Shown in pieces: positions 5,747 to 23,400 of a DNA stretch of 64,000 nt; position 1 is the first letter of the stretch, and each line of letters opens with the position of its first letter. The notes under the pieces were generated by a model. The model ran no database searches and was not told the DNA's origin. It saw only the letters and a program-made list of their open reading frames with translations. The DNA is from Escherichia coli (GTDB lineage: Bacteria > Pseudomonadota > Gammaproteobacteria > Enterobacterales > Enterobacteriaceae). A program made the position numbers and the translations under genes. The stretch is taken from assembly GCF_003334305.1 (NCBI RefSeq), contig NZ_QOWS01000008.1. The stretch is one strand, 5' to 3'.

Positions 5747-6407
5747 GGCCCACGCCTCCATGCAAGTGACCATCGCTCAGGGTGAGCATGCGATAGGAAC
5801 GCCGTGAAATCAGGTTGATGTCGTGCGTTGCCATCAATACGGTTACCCCAACGCGGTTAAACTCTTCAAACAGACGTAGAATCCCTTCCGACAACGCGTC
5901 GTCCAGGTTACCGGTCGGTTCGTCCGCCAGCAGTACCGCGGGCTTATTCACCACCGCGCGGGCAATGCCAACACGCTGTTGTTCACCGCCGGAAAGCTGA
6001 ATAGGGAAGTTCTTCGCTTTGTCCAGTAGCCCGACTTTATCCAGTGCCGCCGACACCCGGCGACGAATATCGTCACCGCTGGCACCAGCGATAATCAGCG
6101 GGATCGCCACGTTATCGTAGACAGTACGGTCCATCAGTAGATGGTGATCCTGGAAAATCATGCCAATCTGGCGGCGCAGAAACGGAACTTCACGGTTTTT
6201 CAGACGCGTGATGTCATGGCCGCTAAACCAGATTTTCCCGGCGCTGGGCCGCTCAATCCCACAGATCAGCTTCAGGAGGGTACTTTTCCCTGCGCCGGAA
6301 TGACCGGTCAGAAACGCCATCTCACCCGGCTGCATATGGAACGTAACGCCCTGCAGCGCCTGTCTCCCACCGAGATAAGCCTTGCTGACATGTTCAAAGC
6401 GAATCAT
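5739..6407 (-). CDS. ftsE: Cell division ATP-binding protein FtsE
   Basis: 222 aa, Walker [13 protein letters not shown] signature [29 protein letters not shown]... Confidence 0.95.
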
Positions 6408-6409
6408 TG

Positions 6410-7903
6410 TTAATCCTCTCGGGCAAAAAGTGCCTCTATAAAGTCGTCCGCCTTAAACGGACGCAAATCCTCAATACGTTCGCCGACACCAATGTAGCGG
6501 ATAGGGATACCAAACTGGTCAGCCACCGAGAAAATTACCCCGCCTTTCGCCGTGCCGTCCAGTTTCGTTAGCGTGATGCCGGTTAAGCCAACAGCTTCGT
6601 GGAACAGTTTGGCCTGGCTTACCGCGTTCTGCCCGGTGCTGGCATCAATAGTCAGCATAACTTCATGCGGCGCTTCAACGTCGAGTTTCTTCATCACGCG
6701 GACGATTTTCTTCAACTCTTCCATCAGATGCGATTTGTTCTGCAGACGTCCGGCGGTATCGGCAATCAGGACGTCGATATTACGCGCTTTAGCTGCCTGA
6801 ATGGCGTCGAAGATAACAGAGGCGGAATCCGCACCAGTATGCTGGGCAATCACCGGAATATTGTTGCGCTGACCCCAGACCTGAAGCTGTTCAACCGCTG
6901 CTGCACGGAAAGTATCGCCCGCCGCCAGCATCACCGATTTACCCTGCTGCTCAAACTGACGCGCCAGCTTACCAATCGTCGTGGTTTTACCCACACCGTT
7001 GACGCCCACCATCAGGATCACGAACGGCGTTTTACCTTCAACATTCAGCGGCTCATCGACTTTCGCCAGAATCTCGCCCATCTCTTCTTTCAGCAGGCCA
7101 TAGAGCGCCTCGGCATCACGAAGCTGCTTGCGGGATGCGCCTTCCGTCAGATTGGTGATAATTTTACGTGTGGTTTCCACGCCCACATCGGCGATCAACA
7201 GCTGTTCTTCCAGCTCCTCAAACAGATCATCGTCGATTTTTTTACCGCGGAACAGGCTGATAAATCCGGAACCGAGATTTTCTTTGGTTTTTAACAGGCT
7301 GCGTTTCAGGCGCGCGAAGAAACCTTCTTTGGTCGGTTTTTCCTGCTCCTGAGCGATTTCTTCCACCGGCTGCTCTTCTACCGGAGGAACCACCATCACC
7401 GCCTCTTCTGCCGCTTCGGCAGCCAGCGCCTGTGCTTCCAGCTCTTCGTCGGTGATTTCTTCTTTAGCCGCTTCTTCTTCCGCCGCTTCGACAATCTCTA
7501 CGGTTTCCGCTTCAGCCTGCCACTCTTCTGGCGAAACCTCTTCGGCGTTGACGTCTTCCGGCAACGGCAGCTCTTCACGCTCGATAGCCACTGGCTCCGG
7601 CGTTTCTTCTACGACCGGTTCCGGCTGTGCAACGACTTCCGCTTCAGGCTGCGCTTTTTCACTTTCAGCAACCTGTTCAGTGACTTCCACAACGTCGGCA
7701 GCAAAAGTTTCCGCCTCGGCTTCAGTATGCGCCTGCGGCTGCTCTTCGACGGCTTGTTCAGAAGCCTTCACAGGCTCTTGCGCCTGAACGATTTCTTCTA
7801 CAACCGGTTGTTCATTCTGAACTTCTGTCTCTTTTTCCGGGGTCTGCTCTTTTTGACCAAAGCCCAGCCAGGAAAAAAAGCCACGTTTTTTTTCTTTCGC
7901 CAT
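6410..7903 (-). CDS. ftsY: SRP receptor FtsY
   Basis: 497 aa; acidic low-complexity N-terminal domain followed by SRP-GTPase NG domain (GVNGVGKTTTIGKLA, DTAGR). Confidence 0.95.
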   Translation of the reverse strand: MAKEKKRGFFSWLGFGQKEQTPEKETEVQNEQPVVEEIVQAQEPVKASEQAVEEQPQAHTEAEAETFAADVVEVTEQVAESEKAQPEAEVVAQPEPVVEETPEPVAIEREELPLPEDVNAEEVSPEEWQAEAETVEIVEAAEEEAAKEEITDEELEAQALAAEAAEEAVMVVPPVEEQPVEEIAQEQEKPTKEGFFARLKRSLLKTKENLGSGFISLFRGKKIDDDLFEELEEQLLIADVGVETTRKIITNLTEGASRKQLRDAEALYGLLKEEMGEILAKVDEPLNVEGKTPFVILMVGVNGVGKTTTIGKLARQFEQQGKSVMLAAGDTFRAAAVEQLQVWGQRNNIPVIAQHTGADSASVIFDAIQAAKARNIDVLIADTAGRLQNKSHLMEELKKIVRVMKKLDVEAPHEVMLTIDASTGQNAVSQAKLFHEAVGLTGITLTKLDGTAKGGVIFSVADQFGIPIRYIGVGERIEDLRPFKADDFIEALFARED

Positions 7904-10110: not shown

Positions 10111-12309
10111 ATGTCGACTCCTGACAATCACGGCAAGAAAGCCCCTCAATTTGCTGCGTTCAAACCGCTAACTGCGGTACAGAACGCCAACGACTGTTGC
10201 TGCGACGGCGCATGTTCCAGCTCGCCAACGCTCTCTGAAAACGTCTCCGGCACCCGCTATAGCTGGAAAGTCAGCGGCATGGACTGCGCCGCCTGTGCGC
10301 GCAAGGTAGAAAATGCTGTGCGCCAGCTTGCAGGCGTGAATCAGGTGCAGGTGTTGTTCGCCACCGAAAAACTGGTGGTCGATGCCGACAATGACATTCG
10401 TGCACAAGTTGAATCTGCGGTGCAAAAAGCAGGCTATTCCCTGCGCGATGAACAGGCCGCCGAAGAACCGCAAGCATCACGCCTGAAAGAGAATCTGTCG
10501 CTGATTACGCTAATCGTGATGATGGCAATCAGCTGGGGTCTGGAGCAGTTCAATCATCCGTTCGGGCAACTGGCGTTTATCGCGACCACGCTGGTTGGGC
10601 TGTACCCGATTGCTCGTCAGGCATTACGGCTGATCAAATCAGGCAGTTACTTCGCCATTGAAACGTTAATGAGCGTAGCCGCTATTGGTGCGCTGTTTAT
10701 TGGCGCAACGGCTGAAGCTGCGATGGTGTTGCTGCTGTTTTTGATTGGTGAACGACTGGAAGGTTGGGCCGCCAGCCGCGCGCGTCAGGGCGTCAGCGCG
10801 TTAATGGCGCTGAAACCAGAAAACGCCACGCGCCTGCGTAACGGTGAGCGTGAAGAGGTGGCAATTAACAGCCTGCGCCCTGGCGATGTGATTGAAGTTG
10901 CGGCGGGTGGGCGTTTGCCTGCCGACGGTAAACTGCTCTCACCCTTTGCCAGTTTTGATGAAAGCGCCCTGACCGGCGAATCCATTCCGGTGGAGCGTGC
11001 GACGGGCGATAAAGTTCCTGCAGGCGCCACCAGCGTAGACCGTCTGGTGACGTTGGAAGTATTGTCCGAACCGGGAGCCAGCGCCATTGACCGGATTCTG
11101 AAACTGATCGAAGAAGCCGAAGAGCGTCGCGCTCCCATTGAGCGGTTTATCGACCGTTTCAGCCGCATTTATACGCCAGCAATTATGGCCGTCGCCCTGC
11201 TGGTAACGCTGGTGCCGCCGCTGCTGTTTGCCGCCAGCTGGCAAGAGTGGATTTATAAAGGCCTGACGCTGCTGCTGATTGGCTGCCCGTGTGCGTTAGT
11301 TATCTCCACGCCCGCGGCGATTACCTCCGGGCTGGCAGCAGCGGCACGTCGTGGGGCGTTGATTAAAGGCGGAGCGGCGCTGGAACAGCTGGGTCGTGTT
11401 ACTCAGGTGGCGTTTGATAAAACCGGTACGCTGACCGTCGGTAAACCGCGCGTTACCGCGATTCATCCGGCAACGGGTATTAGTGAATCTGAACTGCTGA
11501 CACTGGCGGCGGCGGTCGAGCAAGGCGCGACGCATCCACTGGCGCAGGCCATCGTACGCGAAGCACAGGTTGCTGAACTCGCCATTCCCACCGCCGAATC
11601 ACAGCGGGCGCTGGTCGGGTCTGGCATTGAAGCGCAGGTTAACGGTGAGCGCGTATTGATTTGCGCTGCCGGGAAACATCCCGCTGATGCATTTGCTGGT
11701 TTGATTAATGAACTGGAAAGCGCCGGGCAAACGGTTGTGCTGGTAGTACGTAATGATGACGTGCTGGGTATCATTGCATTGCAGGATACCCTGCGCGCCG
11801 ACGCAGCAACTGCCATCAGTGAACTGAACGCGCTGGGGGTTAAAGGAGTGATCCTCACCGGCGATAATCCACGCGCAGCGGCGGCAATTGCCGGGGAGCT
11901 GGGGCTGGAGTTTAAAGCGGGCCTATTGCCGGAAGATAAAGTCAAAGCGGTGACCAAGCTGAATCAACATGCGCCCCTGGCGATGGTCGGTGATGGTATT
12001 AACGACGCGCCAGCGATGAAAGCTGCCGCCATTGGGATTGCAATGGGCAGTGGCACAGACGTGGCGCTGGAAACCGCCGACGCAGCATTAACCCATAACC
12101 ACCTGCGCGGCCTGGTGCAAATGATTGAACTGGCACGCGCCACTCACGCCAATATCCGCCAGAACATCACTATTGCGCTGGGGCTGAAAGGGATCTTCCT
12201 CGTCACCACGCTGCTAGGGATGACCGGACTATGGCTGGCGGTGCTGGCAGATACCGGTGCGACCGTGCTGGTAACAGCGAATGCGTTAAGATTGTTGCGC
12301 AGGAGATAA
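10111..12309 (+). CDS. zntA: Zn(II)/Cd(II)/Pb(II)-translocating P-type ATPase ZntA
   Basis: 732 aa; N-terminal Cys-rich CCCDGAC plus GMDCAAC metal-binding motifs, CPC transmembrane motif, DKTGTLT phosphorylation site. Confidence 0.97.
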   Translation: MSTPDNHGKKAPQFAAFKPLTAVQNANDCCCDGACSSSPTLSENVSGTRYSWKVSGMDCAACARKVENAVRQLAGVNQVQVLFATEKLVVDADNDIRAQVESAVQKAGYSLRDEQAAEEPQASRLKENLSLITLIVMMAISWGLEQFNHPFGQLAFIATTLVGLYPIARQALRLIKSGSYFAIETLMSVAAIGALFIGATAEAAMVLLLFLIGERLEGWAASRARQGVSALMALKPENATRLRNGEREEVAINSLRPGDVIEVAAGGRLPADGKLLSPFASFDESALTGESIPVERATGDKVPAGATSVDRLVTLEVLSEPGASAIDRILKLIEEAEERRAPIERFIDRFSRIYTPAIMAVALLVTLVPPLLFAASWQEWIYKGLTLLLIGCPCALVISTPAAITSGLAAAARRGALIKGGAALEQLGRVTQVAFDKTGTLTVGKPRVTAIHPATGISESELLTLAAAVEQGATHPLAQAIVREAQVAELAIPTAESQRALVGSGIEAQVNGERVLICAAGKHPADAFAGLINELESAGQTVVLVVRNDDVLGIIALQDTLRADAATAISELNALGVKGVILTGDNPRAAAAIAGELGLEFKAGLLPEDKVKAVTKLNQHAPLAMVGDGINDAPAMKAAAIGIAMGSGTDVALETADAALTHNHLRGLVQMIELARATHANIRQNITIALGLKGIFLVTTLLGMTGLWLAVLADTGATVLVTANALRLLRRR

Positions 12310-16628: not shown

Positions 16629-17216
16629 ATGTATCGGATAGTTCTGGGGAAAGTTTCGACCTTAAGCGCAGCTCCACTGCCACCGGGTTTACGCGAGCAA
16701 GCACCGCAAGGTCCACGACGCGAACGCTGGCTGGCGGGGCGTGCATTGCTTTCGCACACGCTTTCCCCGCTACCGGAGATCATCTATGGCGAACAAGGCA
16801 AACCTGCATTCGCGCCGGAAACGCCGCTATGGTTCAACTTAAGCCATAGCGGTGACGATATCGCTCTGCTGTTGAGTGATGAAGGCGAAGTCGGCTGCGA
16901 TATCGAAGTGATTCGCCCGCGCGCCAACTGGCGCTGGCTGGCGAACGCCGTATTCAGCCTCGGGGAACACGCTGAGATGGACGCCGTGCATCCTGATCAG
17001 CAACTGGAAATGTTCTGGCGCATCTGGACGCGCAAAGAAGCCATCGTTAAACAGCGTGGCGGCAGCGCCTGGCAAATCGTCAGCGTAGACAGCACCTATC
17101 ACTCCTCGCTGTCAGTCAGCCATTGTCAGCTTGAAAATTTAAGCCTGGCGATCTGCACCCCCACCCCCTTTACGCTCACCGCCGACAGTGTGCAATGGAT
17201 CGATTCAGTTAACTGA
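16629..17216 (+). CDS. acpT: 4'-phosphopantetheinyl transferase AcpT
   Basis: 195 aa MYRIVLGKVSTLSAAPLPPGLREQ..., Sfp-type PPTase. Confidence 0.87.
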   Translation: MYRIVLGKVSTLSAAPLPPGLREQAPQGPRRERWLAGRALLSHTLSPLPEIIYGEQGKPAFAPETPLWFNLSHSGDDIALLLSDEGEVGCDIEVIRPRANWRWLANAVFSLGEHAEMDAVHPDQQLEMFWRIWTRKEAIVKQRGGSAWQIVSVDSTYHSSLSVSHCQLENLSLAICTPTPFTLTADSVQWIDSVN

Positions 17217-17262
17217 TCCGCCCACCCGACTGCCCATCTATTGATCCAGAACAGGTAATCAG

Positions 17263-17290
17263 TATGACGAATACTTAAAATCGTCATACT
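17263..17290 (+). promoter_or_regulatory. NikR operator in the nikA promoter
   Basis: GTATGA-N16-TCATAC (gtatgacgaatacttaaaatcgtcatac), the canonical NikR dyad, about 40 bp upstream of the nikA ATG. Confidence 0.82.
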
Positions 17291-17326
17291 TATTTCCGCC
17301 ATCTATTTTAATCCATTGGGGTTACC

Positions 17327-18901
17327 ATGCTCTCCACACTCCGCCGCACTCTATTTGCGCTGCTGGCTTGTGCGTCTTTTATCGTCCATGCCGCTGCACC
17401 AGATGAAATCACCACCGCCTGGCCGGTGAATGTCGGGCCACTAAACCCGCACCTTTACACGCCTAACCAGATGTTCGCCCAGAGCATGGTTTATGAACCA
17501 TTGGTGAAATATCAGGCAGACGGTTCGGTGATCCCGTGGCTGGCAAAAAGCTGGACTCATTCAGAAGATGGTAAAACCTGGACCTTCACCCTGCGTGATG
17601 ACGTGAAATTCTCCAACGGTGAACCGTTCGATGCCGAGGCGGCGGCAGAAAACTTCCGCGCAGTGCTCGATAACCGTCAACGTCACGCCTGGCTGGAGCT
17701 GGCAAACCAGATTGTTGATGTTAAAGCACTCAGTAAAACAGAGCTGCAAATTACCCTGAAAAGCGCCTACTATCCTTTCCTGCAAGAACTGGCCCTGCCC
17801 CGTCCTTTCCGTTTTATCGCTCCCTCGCAGTTTAAAAACCATGAAACCATGAACGGAATTAAAGCGCCGATTGGCACCGGACCGTGGATTTTGCAGGAAT
17901 CGAAACTGAATCAGTACGATGTCTTCGTCCGTAACGAAAACTACTGGGGCGAAAAGCCGGCGATTAAGAAGATCACTTTTAACGTCATCCCGGACCCGAC
18001 TACCCGCGCGGTGGCGTTTGAAACTGGCGATATCGACCTGCTGTACGGAAACGAAGGGTTATTACCGCTCGATACCTTCGCCCGCTTTAGCCAGAACCCG
18101 GCTTACCACACCCAACTGTCACAGCCGATCGAAACCGTGATGCTGGCACTCAATACCGCCAAAGCCCCCACCAACGAGCTGGCAGTACGGGAAGCTCTTA
18201 ATTACGCGGTGAACAAAAAATCGCTGATTGATAACGCGTTGTATGGCACCCAGCAGGTCGCCGACACCCTGTTTGCCCCTTCTGTGCCCTACGCCAACCT
18301 CGGCCTGAAACCGCGCCAGTACGATCCGCAGAAAGCGAAAGCGTTGCTGGAAAAAGCCGGTTGGACGCTGCCTGCGGGCAAAGACATCCGCGAGAAAAAT
18401 GGTCAGCCGCTGCGCATTGAACTGTCGTTCATCGGCACCGATGCGTTAAGCAAATCGATGGCGGAAATCATTCAGGCTGATATGCGCCAGATTGGCGCAG
18501 ATGTCTCGCTGATTGGCGAAGAAGAGAGCAGTATCTATGCTCGTCAGCGCGACGGTCGTTTTGGCATGATTTTCCACCGCACCTGGGGCGCGCCATACGA
18601 TCCACACGCCTTCCTCAGTTCAATGCGCGTACCGTCACACGCTGACTTCCAGGCACAGCAAGGATTAGCCGACAAACCGCTGATTGATAAAGAGATCGGC
18701 GAAGTGCTGGCGACCCATGACGAAACGCAACGTCAGGCGCTGTATCGCGACATTCTGACCCGTCTGCATGACGAGGCGGTTTATCTGCCTATCAGCTACA
18801 TCTCGATGATGGTGGTATCAAAACCGGAGCTGGGTAATATCCCCTACGCGCCGATCGCCACCGAAATTCCGTTCGAACAGATTAAACCGGTGAAACCTTA
18901 A
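17327..18901 (+). CDS. nikA: Nickel ABC transporter periplasmic binding protein NikA
   Basis: 524 aa with signal peptide [28 protein letters not shown]... Confidence 0.95.
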
Positions 18902-19841
18902 TGTTGCGTTACGTATTACGCCGCTTTCTGCTGCTGATCCCGATGGTGCTCGCCGCCTCGGTGATCATTTTTCTGATGCTGCGCCTCGGTACCGGCGACC
19001 CGGCGCTCGATTATTTGCGTCTGTCTAACCTGCCGCCGACGCCGGAGATGCTGGCCTCTACCCGCACCATGCTGGGACTGGATCAGCCGCTGTACGTCCA
19101 GTACGGCACCTGGTTGTGGAAGGCGCTGCATCTTGACTTTGGTATCTCATTCGCCAGCCAACGCCCGGTACTGGACGATATGCTGAACTTCCTGCCCGCC
19201 ACGCTGGAACTTGCAGGTGCGGCGCTGGTATTAATTCTGCTCACTTCCGTACCGCTCGGTATCTGGGCGGCGCGCCACCGCGACCGTCTGCCGGATTTCG
19301 CCGTGCGCTTTATCGCGTTTCTTGGCGTGTCGATGCCTAACTTCTGGCTGGCGTTTTTACTGGTGATGGCGTTTTCGGTGTATCTGCAATGGCTACCCGC
19401 GATGGGTTACGGCGGCTGGCAGCACATCATTTTGCCTGCGGTTTCCATTGCCTTTATGTCGCTGGCGATTAACGCGCGTTTACTGCGCGCCAGTATGCTG
19501 GACGTCGCCGGTCAGCGTCACGTCACCTGGGCGCGTCTGCGCGGCCTGAACGACAAACAGACCGAACGTCGCCACATCCTGCGCAATGCCTCGCTGCCGA
19601 TGATCACCGCCGTGGGGATGCACATCGGCGAACTGATCGGCGGGACGATGATTATCGAAAACATCTTTGCCTGGCCGGGCGTCGGGCGCTATGCGGTGTC
19701 GGCGATTTTTAACCGTGACTATCCGGTGATCCAGTGCTTTACGCTGATGATGGTGGTGGTTTTTGTGGTCTGTAATTTGATTGTCGATTTGCTCAACGCC
19801 GCGCTGGACCCGCGCATTCGTCGTCATGAAGGAGCGCACGC

Positions 19842-19845
<4 letters not shown>
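18901..19845 (+). CDS. nikB: Nickel ABC transporter permease NikB
   Basis: 314-aa permease; start overlaps nikA stop. Confidence 0.94.
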
Positions 19846-22649
<2,804 letters not shown>

Positions 22650-22681
22650 GTTATTTCTGAAACGAGGAAAGAAAAGATATT

Positions 22682-22714
22682 AACTGAACTTAATTTATAA
22701 AATTAAGTTCAGTT
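22682..22714. terminator. Perfect 14-bp inverted repeat hairpin between convergent nikR and the HicB-like gene
   Basis: aactgaacttaatt-N5-aattaagttcagtt; AT-rich stem-loop in a convergent intergenic region, likely bidirectional terminator. Confidence 0.55.
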
Positions 22715-22768
22715 GCATAGATAGATCCTGTAAAGGCAGATATTCTGCGTAATGTACGCCGCTAAAAT

Positions 22769-23128
22769 TTATAAATGATTCAAACGCTCATTCAGTGTTT
22801 CAATAATATAGGTATTAACAGAGACTTGTTGCTGCGCAGCCGCATTATTAAGGCGTTCACTCAGCGATTCTGGATAGCGTAACGTAAAGGTCTTAATCTT
22901 TTCTGTACGCGCATACGGCTCAATACCCGCAGCTTTACAATCCTCAAGATACTCTCGCAGGGAAAGTTCCCCTTCTTTTTGCAGCCCCTGAATGCTGTCA
23001 GAGACAAAATCACAATAACCTGACAAGCCCAGGAATTTGCCACGAAATGCATTCAGTTCTGGCACGTAAGTGATAACTGCAGGTTGCCCGGCAATCTCCA
23101 TAGAGTTTGGCGTCTTCAGTTTGATCAT
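22769..23128 (-). CDS. HicB-family antitoxin-like protein with C-terminal ribbon-helix-helix
   Basis: 119 aa; C-terminal TLRYPESLSERLNNAAAQQQVSVNTYIIETLNERL resembles a CopG/RHH DNA-binding motif; ATG overlaps the stop of the upstream HicA-like ORF. Confidence 0.7.
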   Translation of the reverse strand: MIKLKTPNSMEIAGQPAVITYVPELNAFRGKFLGLSGYCDFVSDSIQGLQKEGELSLREYLEDCKAAGIEPYARTEKIKTFTLRYPESLSERLNNAAAQQQVSVNTYIIETLNERLNHL

Positions 23129-23400
23129 GGTTTTACCCCTATACTTAGTAACCAGTCACGCACGCTTTCTACAGCGCCTTTATCGGTATCTGGCGACGGA
23201 TGAGGCCGATGGAAACACGCAACGCTCATATTTAGTATGAACTTACAACGCGAACCTCTTCCTTCCTTAATTTCTCCGCCTAATGCTTTAACCAGTGACT
23301 CTATATCAGACCACTTGATCCCTTGAGGAACAGGAGTTTTAAATATTTGATCCAATGTATTTTTTTGTTTCTTCCGTAAAGCCTGTACCTTGGTTCTCAT
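23125..23400 (-). CDS. HicA-family toxin-like protein (putative mRNA interferase)
   Basis: 91 aa; ...IESLVKALGGEIKEGRGSRCKFILNMSVACFHRPHP... matches the HicA pattern (G..GS..K......HRPHP); AAGGA ribosome-binding site before ATG; 4-bp overlap with downstream antitoxin-like ORF. Confidence 0.7.
   Translation of the reverse strand: MRTKVQALRKKQKNTLDQIFKTPVPQGIKWSDIESLVKALGGEIKEGRGSRCKFILNMSVACFHRPHPSPDTDKGAVESVRDWLLSIGVKP

Follow-up and report, generated by a model that had tools for sequence, protein, structure and literature searches.

A NikR operator dyad with an embedded candidate promoter upstream of nikA in Escherichia coli

Introduction

Within the nikABCDE promoter, the dyad GTATGA-N16-TCATAC is the target of the nickel-responsive regulator NikR, which binds it in its nickel-loaded form at nanomolar affinity (PMC7055735). 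The consensus consists of GTATGA half-sites separated by N16, and the antiparallel beta-strands of the ribbon-helix-helix domains enter the major groove of each half-site (PMC4486848). From a comparative perspective, the enterobacterial consensus has been given as GTATGAT-N13/14-ATCATAC, and the sites of delta-proteobacteria as GTGTTAC-N13/14-GTAACAC (PMC545781). The Helicobacter pylori NikR is pleiotropic, acting both as an activator and as a repressor, with no clear consensus (PMC4486848). With regard to regulatory output, NikR represses the nikA promoter as nickel rises, and anaerobic activation of this promoter needs FNR (PMC9434800).

We compared these systems with an operator located in the stretch of Escherichia coli chromosomal DNA analyzed here (64 kb in length; hereafter, the window). 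The enterobacterial NikR signal (PMC545781) has the same half-sites and the same overall length of 28 bp as the window operator. The consensus of the 60 unique operators collected in the present analysis is GTATGAtGAAT...TAaAATCgTCATAC; at position 7, T is the base of most Enterobacterales, whereas the E. coli operator has C (GTATGAC), a difference within the normal spread. The operators of delta-proteobacteria and H. pylori display the same architecture, that is, an inverted repeat of 27-28 bp recognized by the NikR tetramer, but their half-site sequences are unlike GTATGA. The E. coli K-12 nikABCDE operator matches in intergenic sequence, NikR and gene order, with no difference at the operator; the sole nearby difference lies 3' of nikR, where the rhsB island is absent from the window strain. 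The footprint of NikR on this K-12 operator was reportedly described in J Biol Chem by Chivers & Sauer 2000, and the NikR co-crystal 2HZV is said to come from the work of Schreiter et al. 2006.

The site is, accordingly, already known: it is the characterized E. coli NikR operator. The value of the finding is that of a positive control, in which a textbook operator was called from raw sequence with an error of one base. This control reproduces known biology, namely, a unique site, co-occurrence with nikR, and a clean phylogenetic footprint showing an embedded candidate -10 element and an FNR half-site. It does not take any open question further.

A single operator dyad in the window

A pattern search recovered the exact dyad GTATGA-N16-TCATAC once in the 64-kb window, with the following components:

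17262-17289, no strand assigned: NikR operator GTATGACGAATACTTAAAATCGTCATAC, two 6-bp half-sites with 16 bp between them
17262-17267, no strand assigned: left half-site GTATGA, operator positions 1-6, identical in 56-60 of the 60 unique operators
17284-17289, no strand assigned: right half-site TCATAC, operator positions 23-28, identical in 51-60 of the 60 unique operators

The perfect arms of the 28-bp operator GTATGACGAATACTTAAAATCGTCATAC are in reality 9 bp long (GTATGACGA and TCGTCATAC) and flank a 10-bp center. The sequence-only reading from which this analysis started had recognized the dyad correctly and had placed it at 17263-17290; the true site lies one base to the left. Its estimate that the dyad is located about 40 bp upstream of the nikA ATG is a fair one, given that the ATG is at 17327, with the end of the dyad 37 nt before it and the dyad center 51.5 nt upstream. 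The proposed match to the reported NikR dyad was also borne out: half-sites and spacing equal the published consensus (PMC7055735, PMC4486848), and the K-12 sequence is identical.

When the search of the window was relaxed, no match with exactly one mismatch was found and only two had two mismatches, so 17262-17289 is the only real site in the window. At up to three mismatches, 24 dyad matches were counted compared to 20.8 expected; this is the chance level, and further NikR sites in the window were rejected. The 28-mer itself yielded no match in a full-text literature search.

Identity with K-12 extends beyond the dyad: from the acpT stop to the nikA start, 141/141 bp are identical, including the FNR box, the dyad and the leader. 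Within the species, the acpT-nikA junction is present in 5426/5426 complete E. coli genomes, 5199 of these share 99% identity or more over the 110-bp acpT-nikA intergenic region, and the exact operator word occurs in 5300. In the two most divergent intergenic variants retrieved from E. coli, all substitutions fall outside the dyad. Judged by sequence, the features that define an enterobacterial-type NikR operator were all found, namely, the half-sites, the spacing, the location, the cognate regulator and the orthologous conservation, which indicates that the E. coli nik operator itself, and not just a similar site, lies at 17262-17289.

The nik operon and its regulator

The identities of the nik genes were assigned using the curated NCBIfam equivalog cut-offs, which are exceeded by all six ORFs between 17327 and 22649:

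16629-17216: acpT, the gene upstream of nikA, with the stop codon ending at 17216
17327-18901, plus strand: nikA, periplasmic nickel-binding protein, ORF of 524 aa (TIGR02294, 840.6 bits against a cut-off of 393; RefSeq annotation)
18901-19845, plus strand: nikB, permease (NF007677, 643 bits against 433)
19842-20675, plus strand: nikC, permease (NF007738, 537 bits against 335)
20675-21439, plus strand: nikD, ATPase (TIGR02770, 351 bits against 319)
21436-22242, plus strand: nikE, ATPase (NF007739, 511 bits against 354)
22248-22649, plus strand: nikR, nickel-responsive ribbon-helix-helix repressor (NF002815 and TIGR02793, both above cut-off)

The NikR encoded in the window is identical, at 133/133 residues, to the protein in the PDB entries 1Q5V, 2HZA, 2HZV and 3OD2. 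As had been noticed from the sequence, nikR (22248-22649) stands at the end of the nik gene string, after nikABCDE. The accompanying description of the locus as a complete autoregulated unit is accurate as far as the parts are concerned, with nikABCDE-nikR and the operator all present, but the word autoregulated is a simplification. According to De Pina et al. 1999, nikR reportedly also has a weak constitutive promoter located inside nikE, because of which autoregulation of nikR would be only partial. A sigma-70 consensus scan upstream of nikR produced no site, a result that speaks neither for nor against a weak promoter, and a literature search for a constitutive nikR promoter produced no match.

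The nik operon appears to share the window with zntA, encoding a Zn/Cd/Pb P-type ATPase, with arsRBC, and with a second regulator of the ArsR/SmtB family. The annotation of strain 503025 was used to position these metal loci, at window 10111-12309 and about 53350-55490; the colinearity of this strain with the window is established only as far as nikR. Since strain 503025 carries the rhsB island missing from the window, coordinates in the window's second half are approximate.

Conservation of the dyad across species

For the cross-species analysis, we sampled one genome per species, which resulted in 80 nikA loci with a total length of 1.18 Mb. At no more than one mismatch, the dyad occurs 75 times in the 80 loci, invariably 5' of nikA and with the spacing N16 in 75/75 cases; elsewhere in the 1.18 Mb of nikA loci, no dyad was detected at this threshold. 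Nearly all of the dyads are located 19-41 nt before nikA, with a full range of 8-41 nt for 73 of the 75. The dyad-bearing Enterobacterales include Escherichia, Citrobacter, Klebsiella, Raoultella, Kosakonia, Edwardsiella and Arsenophonus, and the dyad is found also in Halomonas and several Rhizobiales. In Samsonia, it is degraded, with two mismatches. No dyad with at most one mismatch was found at the nikA loci of Desulfovibrio, Paenibacillus and Domibacillus, which is consistent with the differing half-sites described for other lineages.

These results bear directly on the trivial possibility that the dyad is a chance palindrome devoid of function. A 12-base match can indeed arise in large genomes, and nothing more speaks for a fortuitous origin, whereas the pattern appeared in 0/100 dinucleotide-preserving shuffles of the window and at least 5300 of the 5426 E. 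coli genomes carry the site unchanged. Furthermore, about 1e-3 matches with up to one mismatch are expected by chance in a 400-bp upstream region, per spacing, compared to the dyad found in the same place in 75 of the 80 species. The cross-species result rules out a chance origin, the probability of which we consider to be practically nil.

The presence of the dyad is associated with that of a linked nikR: both are found in 61 loci, the dyad only in 14, nikR only in one, and neither in four (Fisher p = 0.008). The 14 dyad loci without nikR in the examined flank include some with short flanks; in the remaining ones, with longer flanks, nikR is presumably unlinked. The linked NikR homologs share the N-terminus M-Q/E-R-[VI]-T-x-T, in which R3, T5 and T7 are kept in 62/62 sequences; these three residues of the N-terminal beta-strand are reportedly the base-contacting ones in the 2HZV structure.

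One locus merits a separate mention. In Stappia sp. WLB 29 (L072), the best dyad, at about 6912-6938, has the spacing N15 rather than N16 (GTATGATGTTATTGAAATAACTCACAC), and nikR is located directly 5' of nikA (6348-6752), not at the end of the operon.

The two displaced dyads, 149 nt (L004) and 471 nt (L002) upstream of nikA, are found at loci where repeat elements have been inserted. In Escherichia sp. MOD1-EC7003 (L004:6869-6977), an element of approximately 110 bp lies between the nik operator/promoter and nikA; based on the ERIC consensus, we take this insert (...AATCCCCAGGCGCTTACTAAAGTAAGTGACTGAGGTG...) to be ERIC-like. Its 3' end, AAGTATGACGAGTAT, is a lookalike of the NikR half-site. 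In Escherichia sp. E1V33 (L002:6531-6957), the insert consists of tandem palindromic repeats rich in G+C, about 430 bp in all, with units CCCTCTCC...GGAGAGGG; it sits exactly at the operator's 3' edge (window-equivalent 17290) and leaves the operator intact. Next to nikA lies a degenerate right-arm copy, AATCGTCGCCATAC.

Protein site versus RNA hairpin

Any inverted repeat can, in principle, act at the RNA level, and the location of this one, 46 nt after the acpT stop, is compatible with a terminator or 3'-end stabilizer of acpT, or else with a structured leader of nikA, instead of, or in addition to, a protein-binding site. The RNA from 17250 to 17305 folds into a 10-bp stem with flanking pairs (-15.6 kcal/mol, z = -5.7), which is followed by UUAUUU. 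However, such a z-score is unremarkable, being expected of any perfect 9-bp palindrome, and the features of an intrinsic terminator are lacking, given the 10-nt loop, the four G-C pairs among the 9-10 of the stem and the interrupted tail TTATTT. The terminator scan did not call the hairpin, and Rfam returned no match for 17100-17450 at E-values of up to 1.

The pattern of conservation is more telling. Across the 60 unique operators, the half-site positions are 85-100% identical, and what is conserved is the sequence rather than the pairing: none of the pairs 1-6 has undergone a compensatory change, and the variants break pairs without compensation, with A-C at pair 3 in 9/60 and pair 6 disrupted in 8/60. 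The main variant of the right half-site, TCACAC, is present in 9/60 operators, and the left arm never compensates for it. The would-be loop contains the strongly conserved, non-symmetric bases TAnAATC. In addition, the dyad follows nikA in genera where the 5' sequence is unrelated to acpT. Finally, with a candidate -10 element inside the loop (see below), the nikA mRNA would begin at the dyad's 3' end and lack the hairpin. On the strength of the conservation pattern, we rejected an RNA hairpin or terminator as the primary function, and we regard this interpretation as very improbable.

A minor, secondary role of the hairpin in stopping read-through from acpT may nevertheless exist. There is a slim likelihood, somewhat greater than that of a primary RNA function, that the repeat has a second job as an acpT 3' hairpin insulating nik, or that the insertions in Escherichia sp. 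E1V33 and MOD1-EC7003 create long structured leaders that rewire nickel control in these two lineages. If true, either scenario would leave the identity of the site in the window, as a NikR operator, unchanged.

Candidate promoter elements embedded in and adjacent to the operator

An anchored alignment of 73 unique upstream regions, with per-position counts taken from the 60 unique operators, revealed three blocks conserved at fixed register: TTGATCC, the two half-sites, and TAnAAT in the spacer. The first and the last of these blocks correspond to the following elements of the window:

17241-17254, plus strand: FNR-like box TTGATCCAGAACAG, matching 8/10 specified consensus positions
17276-17281, plus strand: candidate -10 hexamer TAAAAT, inside the operator spacer

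The -10 assignment agrees with the constraint on the spacer, where operator positions 15, 16, 18, 19 and 20 (T, A, A, A and T), all outside the palindrome, are conserved in 56-59 of the 60 operators. From this hexamer, the nikA transcription start is predicted to lie near 17288-17289, in the right half-site.

The sequence-only reading had suggested a search for an FNR site upstream. This search returned the box TTGATCCAGAACAG at 17241-17254, which has two mismatches; its left half does not vary among Enterobacterales, where the alignment shows TTGATCC at a constant 21 nt upstream of the dyad. Taken alone, a box of this quality is near the chance expectation (58 with two mismatches in the window compared to 37 expected). 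Its center is 28.5 nt before the candidate -10 element, which, counted from the inferred start, would put it at about -40.5 to -41.5 and fits, to within 1 bp, a class II arrangement. Class II FNR promoters, with TTGAT-N4-ATCAA near -41.5, are similar in the TTGAT half, in the spacing to the candidate -10 element and in the absence of a -35 element; the window box differs in its degenerate right half, AACAG as opposed to ATCAA of the consensus. A sigma-70 scan of 17000-17500 called no promoter and found no -35 hexamer, a result that we read as pointing to an activator-dependent promoter without a -35 element rather than to the absence of a promoter.

Among the alphaproteobacterial loci (L067-L073; Consotaella, Rhizobium, Fulvimarina and a Proteobacteria MAG), TTGATCC is replaced by a -35-like TTGAC about 20-30 nt upstream of the dyad, with the register of the NikR dyad unchanged. 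The activation logic appears to differ between Enterobacterales and alphaproteobacteria, whereas the repression logic is conserved.

Another regulator could, in theory, be the main ligand of the site, the foremost example being NarL, which would bring about nitrate repression of nik. Rowe et al. 2005 are said to have reported that nitrate represses nikABCDE through NarLX, and a perfect NarL heptamer, TACTTAT (consensus TACYYMT), is present at 17287-17293, where it overlaps the right half-site. However, NarL heptamers occur in the window at the level expected by chance (30 compared to 33 expected), and outside the half-site this heptamer is poorly conserved, with A or C at position 31 in 25/60 operators. 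Moreover, control by NarL would supplement that by NikR, not substitute for it. We therefore consider a main regulator other than NikR even less probable than a primary hairpin function, though still far more probable than a chance palindrome.

A model for nickel-dependent repression

Our preferred account, to which we assign a probability of roughly 0.96, is that the dyad is a NikR operator lying over an FNR-activated nikA promoter and that nickel-loaded NikR blocks RNA polymerase. No observation made here contradicts it. Under this model, sufficient cytoplasmic Ni(II) would lead the nickel-loaded tetramer of NikR, the gene for which lies 5 kb downstream, to bind 17262-17289, with two ribbon-helix-helix domains entering the major groove at the GTATGA half-sites, two helical turns apart. 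The bound NikR would cover the -10 element (17276-17281) and, via the right half-site, the predicted start near 17288-17289, and would therefore exclude RNA polymerase. Synthesis of the NikABCDE importer would be shut off, along with that portion of the nikR mRNA that reads through from the nikA promoter. FNR, at the TTGAT box 17241-17254, would activate transcription in place of a -35 element. The combination of FNR activation with repression by nickel-loaded NikR would keep the operon on only in an anaerobic, nickel-poor cell.

The components of this model differ in their provenance. The present analysis shows the sequence of the site and its uniqueness, its identity with K-12, the identity of NikR with the crystallized protein, and the conservation among species of the half-sites, the -10 block and the FNR half-site. 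Nickel-dependent nanomolar binding, repression and FNR dependence come from the literature on K-12 and are expected to apply here, where the sequence is identical. We infer the exact start site and the occlusion of the polymerase as the repression step; the basis for the proposed steric exclusion is that the location of the operator over the -10/start region is the constant feature across lineages.

The region downstream of nikR

The region 3' of nikR (window 22650-23400) contains no rhsB island, unlike the corresponding regions of K-12 and strain 503025. Instead, nikR is followed by two small ORFs on the minus strand (22769-23128 and 23125-23400) and then by yhhJ, rbbA and yhiI. In identical genomes, at least one of the two small ORFs is annotated as a HicB-family antitoxin (type II toxin-antitoxin). 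At least 80% of window 22600-30600 is covered in 4185 of the 5426 E. coli genomes. Between nikR and the antitoxin gene, at 22682-22714, there is a 15-bp inverted repeat, perfect and rich in A+T (AACTGAACTTAATTT-ATA-AAATTAAGTTCAGTT), which the terminator scan called as terminator-like on the minus strand. This repeat is possibly a bidirectional terminator or, alternatively, the junction of the rhs island present in other strains.
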